A DNA stretch of 64,000 bases from Octopus vulgaris (GCA_951406725.2 OX597832.1:67766001-67830000); one strand, 5' to 3'; shown: positions 55,353 through 60,859, counted from the stretch's first letter. Numbers and translations: made by a program. Notes: generated by a model from the letters alone, not told the origin.

Positions 55353-55737
55353 TGATAGATAGACAGACAGATAGAAAGATAGATAGATAGATTGGCAAAT
55401 AGATAGATAGATAGGTAGATAGATAGATAGATAGATAGATAGATAGATAGATAGATAGATAGATAGACATATATATATATATATATATATAGATAGATAG
55501 ATAGATAGATAGACAGACATATATATATATATATATATATATATATATATATATATATATATATATATGTATATATATATATATATATATATATATATAT
55601 ATATATATATATATATAGATAGATAGATAGATAGATAGATTGATAGATAGACAGACAGACAGGCAGATAGACAGACGAACATATACATAGATAGATAGAT
55701 AGATAGATAGATAGATAGATAGATAGATATATAGATA
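55353..55737. repeat. Compound (GATA)n/(TA)n/(GACA)n microsatellite
   Basis: Directly visible. Confidence 0.95.
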
Positions 55738-56885
55738 TCTCTATATATAAACAGCAGTTTGTCTGTCTGTGTGTCTGTGTGTCTGTCAGGTTGTACCCTC
55801 ACCCTGACCACGGCTTTCAACCGATTCTGATGAAACTTGACACACACATAGTCCAATGTCATAATTCAACACTAACGCATGGAAAATTTTGAAAGGTTCT
55901 CCCAGTTCTGAAAAAAATCGATAAATTTGACATGGGTCAAGAATCTAAGCTTTTTATATGCAACACATTTTCTGTTGTAGTTTTTGCAACTTGCAATCGA
56001 TTTTCACCAAACTCATGGTGAAGCTTAATGTTACCCTAAGAAACTTTATTCTGACGTTAGTTTTCCATGCAATACCTTACCATCAGAAAAAATCGATAAA
56101 ATCATGCCATTTTTAAATTCAAGATGACATATTTTCGACAATATCTTTCACAAATTGGCAGGAATTTTTTTTTTAATTCACAGCGAGCATCATGTCTGCT
56201 CCAAGGAGCTATATGACCCTTTTTATTCCAATAGGATACTTTATTACTGGAAAAAATTGGTTAATTAAATCATATGTGGCACACATAGCAAACCGATTTG
56301 TGTATTAAACACAAACCACAGACTGTCTAGGGGACGCAACTCGACCTTTTTAACTTTCGGAACACGTGGGGTAAGTATCCCAAAATGTATAAAAATGTAC
56401 AAAAACGGCAAAAAAGCGGGCAGCAATGTGAGTGACAACAACGAAAATGTCAAAAGTGACCAAACTGAACAAACGAATGGAAAAGGTTTTTTGGTGCACA
56501 CGACAAAAGCGGTTTATAATAAACCAAGAGTTTGCAAGTAGCGTCCGAGGACCCTTAGGGTACGTCAAAAATTTAAGATAAAACGTTTGGGGTGGTAGTT
56601 ATAAAGAAAGTTTAAACAAAAAAAGTATTCGAATAACTTATAGCTGCAGCAGCTATTAGCAGAAGTGGCGGCGTTGGGGATAAAGTCTCGAAAGTAATTT
56701 CTTCCTGGTAGGAATTGGTTGGGTTGAATTATCGATAGCTGTTTGATAGTTATTTGGGAGTGAAGAGAAGACATTGCAACCTACACATGCGCCTTCGTTC
56801 CCTAGAGGGAAAGGACTAGATTGGGATTAGTCGTTGCCTACTAGGGGCTCTTACATACCCGGGCAACGCCGGGCTATGCTGCTAG
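55738..56885 (+). mobile_element. Non-autonomous Helitron
   Basis: Inserted between A55737 and T56886; starts TC(tctatatataaa), subterminal (CTGT)-rich tract, 3' GC hairpin cccgg-gcaacg-ccggg (56858-56873) 8 nt before the terminal CTAG; no TSD. Confidence 0.88.
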
Positions 56886-56887
56886 TG

Positions 56888-59800
56888 TTTCTTTATTAGC
56901 CACACAGGGCTGCACACAGACTGGACAAATTACAGGGTAGAGCTTTTCTTTTGCCTCCAAGTATCGATGGTTTTCGATCAAAAGGGATCGTAAAAGGAAA
57001 GAAAGAGGACAAAAAAGGGGAGGGGGTTAAAAAAAAAAGGAAAGGAAAAAAAAGGGAAAGGAAAAAAAATTGATCAAAAGGGATCGTTATCACAGAAATG
57101 TCAATATAAAGTGTAAAGGGGAAGACAGGTGAGGTTTACCCGTGGAAAGAAGAGCCTACGGAAAAGACCACGGTAACCTGGGTCAATGAAGTCACATGTT
57201 ATATTTCTTTTTTTTTTACAAATAAGCAACTCTCTGTATTAATTTTTACGGTTCATAGGATCATAGTCAAGGTGGCTTCGTCATTCATACGTGCCATCCT
57301 TGCTACATTCACCCATCTTTTTTTAAAACATTCACTAGACAAAACTTGCCTCTCTACTCTCACTTTCCTCTTCAAGTGATACTTGAAGAAGTTGATAAGA
57401 AATTGACCAGAGAGGAAAGCGTTTGTCTCTAATCCTTTCAGGCGCGTCCATCAGATACATTCTTTCGCCATAGCCACAAGTATGATAAAAATAGCTCTTC
57501 CTTCCCGTTTGAAGGAAGGAGGCGTGACGATATTAACGATAGACTTGGCTGATAAACCGACACGTCCCACACGTGACAGCAGTCGTTCGACATAAGCCCA
57601 CAGGTCAGAGATTGTTGGACACTGCACGATTGCGTGCAGAACGGTTTCGTCGCTCTGCCCGCATCTCGGGCATGTCGGCCCCGTGTTTCTCGAGCCATGC
57701 CTATAGAGCTTATCCCGAACGGGTAGCGCTTCTCGGTAGCACTGCTAGGCCAGGGATCTCTGGAAGTTGTCCATAGGTCCCGGCCCGAAAGTTGTTTCAA
57801 ACAGGCGGGTCAGGTATTCCTCATCGACGCCCAGGTTTGCCCTAAGATCGTCGTCGTACCTCCCCTCCATTAATCCCCTATAGAATGCTTTGGTTGTGTT
57901 GAAGTCACGGGACGGCAGAGTTGCTTGAGAGCAACGCGACACTCGCGGTGCCATTCGCCCTTCCTCGGCCTCTTTTTGATCCACGACTGCAGTTCGGTCA
58001 TGGAGACGAGCTGCGGGAACGCGTGCCTCATAAACGGCGACCACACCTGTTCACCGTCGTCTACATAGAGCCGGAGATGTCGCAGTCTCAGCGCGTGTCT
58101 GCGCATCATCAACCACGGCACGCCCAGCCCTCCTTTTAACGGGTGTTGACAGCAAATGGATCGCCTGATCATCGGGACGCATCCTTTCCACAAGAAGCGG
58201 AAGAGAATGCGTTCTAGTTTGGTGATGGTAGGGTCGGTACAAGGTACGACGGTCAGGCGGAAGTAGATGATGGACGCGATGTACGTGTTCACCACTGACT
58301 TTTCCCGGTTGATTTTTGCTCCAGTCACCGCTTATTAGTCTTTCAGTGTCTCGCCGACCAGCTCGATGTTCTCGTGGCTTGACACTATGATGGTGACGTC
58401 GTCCGCGTATGCAGACACACTCGTCCCGCATCCCAATTCTCGCCGGATGCCCCTCAGAATCACCAGCTTCCGCAGTAGTGGCTCGGGAGTCAATACGTAT
58501 AGAAGCGCCGAGAGGGGGCATCCCTGACGGACCGAACGTGCAATGTCGAAAGGTTTCGATAGATGTCCATTTACGCGAATTACCGAACGGATGCCTCTGT
58601 ACAAGGCAGCTATCCAGCCGCAGAAGACGGGACCGAAACCAGCCGCTCTCAGGACTGCCTCCAAGTATCGATGGTCTACCCTATCGAAGGCTTTCGATTG
58701 ATCCAAGTTGATCAGGGCCTCACCCATGCCAGGTTCCTTAACTACTCTGTCTATGATGTAGCGCATCAGATGGAGCTTGTCATGGATGCTCCGGCCCGGC
58801 ACGACGCACGTTTGTGCGTTGTCGACCAGTTTCTCGATGACAAGCGCCAACCTCTTGGCTAACACCTTGGTCAAAATTTTCACGCTCGCCACTCGTCCCG
58901 TACAGTCGGGCAAAGTGCCGCTGAAATGTCTCGCACATCTTGCTGGGCTCGAGCAATTCGCGCCCTTGTCCATCTACCAGAGACCGAATGGTGGCGTTGT
59001 TGCCCTGCTGCGCCTCCGCCACCCGGGCCTCCCTCGCGGCTCCAACAATTTCCATCCTTAGTGCACGCATCCTAGCCCTGACAGCACACCCTTCGCGTTT
59101 GGCGTTGAAGTGTTGGTCAAGGGCCAACCTCGCCGCTAAAACGTCGGATGTGATGCCTCTTGTAACTTCTTAACTATCTCACCCTCCACTCTATTTCTAT
59201 CTACGGCTAGTGCCTTGCTATATATAATTGCTTCCGCTTTTACTGCTGTTTTGAGGGCGAACCACCATTTGTTGTTGACAATGGCTCCCGTTAAAGCCCT
59301 TTTTATTAACGTGTTGATTCTGTCTCTGAAAACCTGTCTGGACGGGAAAGATGCGTTCAGTTTCCAGGGACCGGGACCCTGTGCCTTATCTAAGTCTAGC
59401 GTACACGTCACGAATTTGTGATCCTTGTAGCTGACTGTGTGGAATTGTGGACATCCAAAATTATCCCTGTCTACTGCCCTACACAGTATCCTATCTAGAT
59501 ACGATCTCGACGACCCACTGCGGTTGCTCCATGTCCACGTTGAAGCATTTGGGTGGTCGAGTCGGTATCTGTCAGACAGTTGGAATCGTCTGTGCAGGTC
59601 TCTGAGGCATTTGCATCCCCTTCTGTTTTTGTCTCTCCCCACATAGTCTAGATGCGTGTCCAAGGTAGCATTCCAATCCCCCACTAAAAGTAAAGGACGA
59701 GACGTTCCCAGGAATACTTCTAGACGTCGAAAGAAATCCGGCCGACCTGTTAAAGGCGGTGCATAGACTGATACGAGTCGAAAAGCGCACCCATTGCTGC

Positions 59801-59979
59801 CGTCGACATCCAGAACGACCAGTCTACCCTCCGAGTCTACGAACATCGTCTTGACTTCGAGATCCAGACTCTTGTGAAAAAGTACCGCGGTGCCACTACC
59901 GCCGATCCTCGGCTGACAGGGAGCAAAATAAATGTTAAACTGTCCGCCAAACATGGACTTTAGGGCCCGTGGCTCGTGG
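56888..59979 (-). mobile_element. L1/Tx1-clade LINE, 5'-truncated ORF2 (APE endonuclease, RT, CCHC) with frameshifts and internal deletions
   Basis: FRLVSVYAP, LVGDWNA, YLDRIL, DHKFV (APE); LDQSKAFDRVDH, VRQGCPLS, AYADDVT (RT); CPRCGQSDETVLHAIVQC; 3' UTR ending AATAAAGAAA. Confidence 0.95.
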
Positions 59980-60859
59980 TAGATAGGTAGATAGATAGAT
60001 AGAGAGAGAGAGAGAGGGAGAGATAGATAGACAGACAGATAGATAGATATTAAATGTTCAAAGCATTTAGCCATTTCATCGCAGTTTGAGATCTTTATGT
60101 GTATTCAATTCCGTTATATTTTTTCATCTGATTTAGTTCACAAATATCATTAACTGGAAAGGTTCTTATTTTACAATTTGGCTTCATGAAATAGGTTAAC
60201 AATTTGTAGAATCGGTAGAACGTCGAGGCAAAATGTTTTACGATATTTGGTTACAACCCAAGATCGCTGAAAAACCCGTGTATTGCGCTGAATGTGTATT
60301 CCTATAATTTGAATTTTAGCCTTTGTGCAAATGTTAGGAATCACTATTGCATCTGTTTACAGATTATTTTTCGGGTTTAAATTATGATGGGACTAAATAG
60401 TAAATTTCGTTTTTACGTGTTTAAGATATTTGATTCCAATATGGCGAAACGGTATATTGGTCACTATATATATCTACACCGGAGAGAAATCTGAGAATAT
60501 ACAAAAGTGCTAGTCCAGGTGAAGTATTAGTTGAATGGTTTGATATTAACGGCATCTTATCCGGCAGTTTTGTGATGGGTTCTTTGGTGGTCAGTTTCAC
60601 ATCACCATCTGCTTTTATAAAAAACTTGATAAATTTCACTCAGTGGCAAGCTTTCAAGCAAGAGCTCTTATATGACGATAACTGCTTCCTTCATTGCAGG
60701 TAGTCATAAAGCCACTAACAGCAAAAGTGAAGGGCATCCTTCTTTTTTCTCTGACCAAATAGAAAAGAAACTATACCGCAATCGATTTTACTACAAAGCA
60801 TCGACAAGTAATCATCCTTTCTCTCATAGGCATAAAGTTTGAGATTTTTCTGAAGGAAG

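Follow-up and report, generated by a model that had tools for sequence, protein, structure and literature searches.

GATA arrays beside copies of a Tx1-like LINE family in Octopus vulgaris suggest insertion into pre-existing microsatellites

A 64,000-nucleotide stretch of the Octopus vulgaris genome (GCA_951406725.2 OX597832.1:67766001-67830000, here called the window and numbered from its first letter) contains a decayed long interspersed nuclear element (LINE) whose two ends face arrays of the tetranucleotide GATA, together with a shorter second copy. Taken together, the evidence indicates that the family to which both copies belong probably inserts preferentially into pre-existing GATA arrays. 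An initial annotation had described a LINE bounded by GATA on both sides and proposed a GATA-specific family from it. The arrays and both copies lie where that annotation had placed them, with the long copy on the minus strand, and the second copy does have its 3' end on GATA at 18799. The features on which the argument turns are the following, APE denoting an apurinic/apyrimidinic-type endonuclease, RT reverse transcriptase, ORF an open reading frame, and UTR an untranslated region.

55354-55737, plus strand: 384-bp compound array, (GATA)n/(TA)n/(GACA)n, lying 3' of the long copy
55408-55431, plus strand: 24-nt exact repeat of 59980-60003, a weak candidate target-site duplication
56886-59979, minus strand: long LINE copy, APE-type, decayed and 5'-truncated, with endonuclease, RT, C-terminal zinc finger and two large internal deletions
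56886-57252, minus strand: 3' UTR of the long copy, terminating in AATAAA (56892-56897) and six more bases; also present in the short copy
57253-59979, minus strand: broken ORF2 of the long copy, with APE endonuclease, RT and C-terminal CCHC zinc finger, interrupted by frameshifts, stops and deletions
59980-60049, plus strand: 70-bp compound GATA/GGTA/GA/GACA array abutting the 5' truncation point of the long copy
18496-18799, plus strand: 304-bp GATA array lying 3' of the short copy
18799 to about 19165, minus strand: short copy, comprising the 3' UTR and last ORF2 codons; 3' end on the GATA array, 5' end without GATA and without a duplication

Targeting is suggested first by the 5' junction of the long copy. 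The initial annotation had this truncated end abutting GATA, which is indeed the case: position 59979 lies within the endonuclease coding region and the array starts at the next base. GATA reads on the plus strand in this array and in those at 55354-55737 and 18496-18799. Same-strand GATA equal to that at the junction is found at between 273 of 57,803 and 460 of 58,610 other window positions (0.5-0.8%), and the chance of meeting it at one or more of two 5' junctions is therefore about 1-1.6%. Furthermore, of the nine GATA/TATC arrays in the window, five do not adjoin any element end, and GATA targets therefore exist independently of the element. We rejected the idea that the 5' array is the tail of another copy lying upstream, as no element end follows 60049. 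As a separate observation, GATA reads on the plus strand in eight of the nine arrays, a skew beyond what the two LINE copies explain.

The long copy is a dead, 5'-truncated member of a high-copy LINE family of Tx1/L1 type. Pfam assigns an APE-type endonuclease (PF03372) to 59139-59978, an RT (PF00078) to 58338-58973 and a zf-RVT zinc finger (PF13966) to 57454-57744, and the only PDB matches are L1 endonuclease chains. The copy thus carries the APE endonuclease, RT and CCHC zinc finger in ORF2 that mark the L1/Tx1 group, as well as the 5' truncation, AATAAA and short A-rich 3' end of that group. As a full-length reference we used the ORF2 of a relative, L081 (1,155 residues), of which the long copy covers residues 67-318, 527-727, 800-932 and 930-1130; the gaps in this coverage indicate that about 120 and about 70 codons have been deleted. 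Because the reading frame opens at about residue 41 of L081, the 5' end is a truncation within the endonuclease. The long copy has no ORF1, while the ORF1 of its sister L081 carries PF00098; an ORF1 with a CCHC knuckle is typical of the Tx1 clade.

At the 3' end, a later event than the LINE insertion now separates the long copy from the array at 55354-55737:

55738-56885, plus strand: non-autonomous, high-copy Helitron-like insert with 5' TC, 3' CTAG and a candidate subterminal hairpin, lying between A and T

The insert shows the 5' TC, 3' CTRR, A|T insertion site and lack of duplication that characterize Helitron ends, and it is classed by these rules. The candidate hairpin is a short GC stem that folds no better than shuffled sequence (z of -1.5; 16 of 200 shuffles fold equally well). 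The initial annotation had reasoned that removing the insert would join the LINE 3' end at 56888 to GATA. Excision in silico does recover this junction, but not as direct contact, because two bases (56886-56887) remain between array and element. These bases look family-typical, since 90 contigs of other copies diverge from the window just before 56886.

Those contigs come from a comparison of four public runs with 55740-59979 at 85% likeness. A raw-read run (X21) gave 0 reads, and the three contig runs gave 54,040, 37,820 and 11,839 records; the Helitron-like insert is covered in all three. Summed depth, which is not equivalent to copy number, declines from the 3' to the 5' end of the LINE in all three, and the higher 3' depth fits a high-copy truncated family. 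Part of the element was found in 20 of 24 listed runs, representing 8 organisms. Among the 18 of 3,719 loose ends listed, run X1 has the 90 contigs ending before 56886 (consensus agreement 0.59) and a further 47 ending before 56887 (0.76), both with a (GATA)n consensus. In this one run, contact of the LINE 3' end with (GATA)n is family-wide. The repeat flanks the 3' end in both window copies and in these 137 contigs, the latter a count with no denominator. Within the same 18, the deletion points of the long copy recur as loose ends of other copies at 58882, 58295 and 57908.

Searches in other collections returned little. In viral, metagenome and prokaryote collections a 21-base motif common to both copies was matched 0 times, and the RT alone had no match in viral contigs. 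The 3' UTR was matched in 0 of three metagenome-assembled genomes (MAGs) that carry host-like contigs, and a hexamer-plus-TATC pattern was matched once in the same three, without a LINE beside it. None of 138 fetched loci is a member of the GATA-flanked family; a TATC-type run occurs in one of them only (L135), 2.4 kb from its element, and was judged unrelated.

Relatives of the element bear on both its clade and its ends. Named homologues are 59% (Octopus sinensis), 55% (cuttlefish) and 44% (fish) identical. In an RT tree of 69 rows, with near-identical array copies and broken loci excluded, the element falls within a lineage of 16 rows (99/97) that includes the cuttlefish protein, but the backbone does not resolve; the tree is anchored by U2- and 5S-flanked elements, with no identified L1-clade anchor and no named reference sequences. 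The initial annotation had called the element Tx1-like. Membership of the Tx1 clade is likely, as it fits the anatomy and the nearest relatives, although the tree does not itself place the clade. Rfam identified U2 flanks in L002, L004 and L007 and 5S flanks in L015, L018 and L130 (the 5S label of L027 was assigned by eye and does not come from Rfam); Mutsu is the name of such 5S-flanked elements. Beyond its own lineage, the RT of the element is matched best by that of the U2-flanked L002 (46%), and the lineages of the two are not joined in the tree.

In L002, L015, L018 and L130, the loci whose junction was captured, a polyadenylation-like hexamer and a short A-rich run are joined straight to the target, and the (TATC)n of the long copy starts at the same position as the target in these four. 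By analogy with such target-flanked, Tx1-type elements, the repeat would likewise stand where a target stands. Sister families of the same lineage were compared at 40 distinct 3' junctions, and a repeat tail was present at none of them, which again argues, by comparison with relatives, for a target over a tail. Separately, we observed that the 3' flank of L002 (about 5790-5810) opens with TATCT, as the (TATC)n flank does; this match of five bases may be chance.

An insertion of this kind would follow the scheme of target-primed reverse transcription. The APE endonuclease would nick the GATA-reading strand within an existing array, and the freed 3' end would prime synthesis of complementary DNA (cDNA) from the short A-rich end of the RNA. 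For the long copy, synthesis would have halted about 3 kb or more in, within the endonuclease region, leaving the 5' truncation; the truncated cDNA would then have been joined to the remaining half, splitting the array, and both halves could later have changed length by slippage. The endonuclease itself may set the choice of target, judging from the biochemistry of Tx1L, TRAS1 and R1Bm (R1-clade) (PMC1919474).

The short copy is a less informative witness. It matches the long copy in three blocks (53/65, 93/110 and 37/47) and, with an identity of only 79-85%, is a sister subfamily or an older copy. As the initial annotation had cautioned, its 5' junction has no GATA. A comparison of this 5' end with either side of its array, under a target and under a tail model, revealed no duplication of at least 8 bases; the junction may for this reason not be original, which weakens the short copy as evidence for both models. 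Part of the same locus is present again nearby:

14420-15226, plus strand: duplicate of 17989-18804 that spans the flank, the array and 5 bases at the start of the short copy, beyond which the sequence is unrelated

This duplicate (806 bp, 3.6 kb apart) is near-identical, with 504 of 506 flank bases shared. Its right break falls 5 bases into the short LINE, and it could have arisen by duplication or represent either an allele or an empty site. We did not accept it as an empty site, because 5 element bases are kept and its right flank is absent after the short copy. It is more simply read as the product of a later duplication or as an allele in the assembly, and the locus is probably no empty site.

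Several points weigh against preferential insertion into existing arrays. GATA adjoins the 5' junction in one of two visible copies, the short copy lacking it; the sample is two 5' junctions, and the case was chosen because of the one that has it. Of the GATA-specific family proposed in the initial annotation, what stands is thus the 3' link, family-wide in X1, with targeting as the likelier cause, whereas at the 5' junction one of the two window copies speaks for it. The family-wide 3' association is equally expected from an encoded tail, and the 18 of 3,719 loose ends listed cover this place for X1 but not for X2 or X18, and include no 5' junction. With an agreement of 0.59, many of the loose ends deviate from clean GATA. 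The analysis found no empty site; the 14420 duplicate retains its 5 element bases. The sister families are 43-56% identical to the element (43% in the endonuclease, about 50% in the RT), and given this distance their lack of a tail transfers only weakly.

A further point concerns the 24-nt repeat, whose variant core is confined to two places in the window, 55408-55431 and 59980-60003. Should this be a genuine duplication, the 306 bp of array between it and the element end would have been either carried in or added by later expansion; pure targeting needs the expansion. The match hinges on one transition, or one common variant unit, and looser forms occur in two of six other plus-strand arrays, so that as proof of a duplication it was rejected as too weak. 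Its length is similar to that of the Tx1L duplication, 23 bp.

The alternative that survives best, which we nonetheless consider unlikely, assigns the choice of site to the RNA. If the transcript ended in UAUC repeats, whether encoded or read through from a donor array, these could pair with the nicked GATA strand; the element would prefer arrays and also add repeats to them, and its endonuclease need not be specific. Such pairing accounts for both junctions of the long copy and for the family-wide 3' association. The 24-nt repeat would then be the duplication and the 306 bp the carried tail, and it agrees with the 3'-side arrays (384 and 304 bp) exceeding the 5'-side array (70 bp). However, the 306 bp are a complex mix of aged appearance, the 24-nt match depends on the common variant unit described above, and the relatives have no repeat tail (0 of 40).

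A tail alone, encoded by an element that inserts unselectively and gives rise to GATA arrays next to its 3' end, is a still less likely explanation, with the 5' array of the long copy as coincidence. It would suit the GATA-free 5' end of the short copy and a window (GC content 35%) that is microsatellite-rich, perfect 2-4-mer runs making up 6.5%, and seeding by a LINE 3' end has been published for snake CR1-L3 and AATAG (PMC6050309). Yet it requires the 0.5-0.8% coincidence, and it predicts that a duplication should link the short-copy 5' end with the opposite side of the array, whereas none was found. The register of the junction also varies among copy groups (56886, 56887 and the short copy), and the snake study reports no transposable element enrichment beside ATAG itself (PMC6050309). 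Like the present family, CR1-L3 has a repeat at the LINE 3' end family-wide; it differs in belonging to the CR1 clade, in its AATAG motif and in having the repeat as part of the element, which predicts no repeat at the 5' junction (PMC6050309). Passive survival of unselective insertions in or near abundant microsatellites, as suggested for Drosophila Waldo-A/B near CA repeats (PMC3812793) and compatible with the many arrays in the window, is made very improbable by its failure to explain a single motif, on a single strand, in base-exact contact in 137 contigs.

Preferential insertion could also be part of a larger cycle, a speculative extension that we think doubtful. Here the family would both aim at GATA arrays and carry the donor-site array along, each jump lengthening its own future targets as a self-feeding source of GATA, and the choice of target would perhaps have descended from the TATCT site of U2-targeting relatives.

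Targeting of microsatellites by Tx1 families is already published, so only the motif and the host would be new, and no new mechanism is involved. The initial annotation was right that several such families are sequence-specific, for simple repeats among other targets: Kibi on (TC)n and Koshi on (TTC)n in teleosts, and crocodilian families on (TTCC)n and (TTTC)n (PMC4494074; PMC3812793). By analogy, these families (PMC4494074) make a GATA-targeting relative plausible. Like them, the present family is an APE-type LINE, probably of the Tx1 group, in the pyrimidine-rich strand of a microsatellite, in fixed orientation. Unlike Kibi and Koshi, compared here by description and not by sequence, it has a (TATC)n flank and an invertebrate host; the flank, which is neither (TC)n nor (TTC)n, rules out that it is either of these families itself. 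Keno, a U2 snRNA (small nuclear RNA)-targeting Tx1 family (PMC4494074; PMC4640811), has the same end anatomy but targets a gene site, whereas the flank of the present family is a repeat. Tx1L of Xenopus serves as the model for an APE endonuclease that sets the site, recognizing about 10 bp (PMC1919474); its target is Tx1D, a DNA transposon, in contrast to the putative GATA target here.

Published LINE microsatellite targets include ACAY, AC, TC, TTC and TAA (PMC3812793), with (TG)n in addition (PMC4640811), and microsatellite-specific families have been defined by the repeat occurring in more than 20% of flanks (PMC4494074; for general background, see PMC8869645). L1-Tx1 elements have been described in cephalopods, with no mention of targets in the sections concerned (PMC8967140). 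In Octopus vulgaris, L1-Tx1 comprises 80 families and 56 Mb, with 13 families recently active (PMC13282606). The present family probably belongs in this class; neither the main text nor the one supplement of that study mentions a target or a GATA link. We found no report of a GATA-targeting LINE in the literature, a search whose scope lay outside Repbase, Dfam, Kojima and Fujiwara 2004 and the figures and supplements of PMC4494074, any of which may list one.

The survey of relatives and of the window yielded several side observations. Bacterial MAG contigs (G002, L081-L128, 66 matches) consist of intact sister LINEs arranged head to tail, with each of several families forming separate arrays, and truncated copies there begin right at the 3' end of their neighbor. 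This arrangement could reflect site-specific insertion or template jumping, and the presence of such host-like contigs in a bacterial MAG is a binning error. LINE ORF1 proteins with a NADAR domain (PF08719, E about 1e-21) occur in L049 (593-2221) and L057 (1-1452), and an Octopus sinensis RT fragment (P0049) bears an effector-like source name but is a LINE RT by Pfam. In the window, a cluster of (AAT)n arrays at 31545-35942 is interleaved with LINE-like coding fragments (for example 32056-32499, 32980-33324 and 34742-35128), two of them without a Pfam match, which resemble Dong/R4 elements. Dong is a published (TAA)n-targeting element (PMC3812793). A further RT fragment (PF00078) lies on the minus strand at 51145-51918 and, having no match to the L081 ORF2, represents a different LINE clade. 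A fragment at 47528-48150 without a Pfam match resembles a mariner-type transposase.

If the preferred reading, insertion into pre-existing arrays, is true, (GATA)n, which is among the commonest tetranucleotide repeats of animals, would join the short list of microsatellites targeted by LINEs, and microsatellite targeting by Tx1-type elements would extend to a mollusc. GATA markers in cephalopod genomes would then call for caution, as they may have repeated flanks. How APE endonucleases read sequence is not well understood (PMC3812793), and a family of high copy number whose target repeats every four bases would offer a simple system for this question. The finding may also bear on how the microsatellite-rich genomes of cephalopods were built up.

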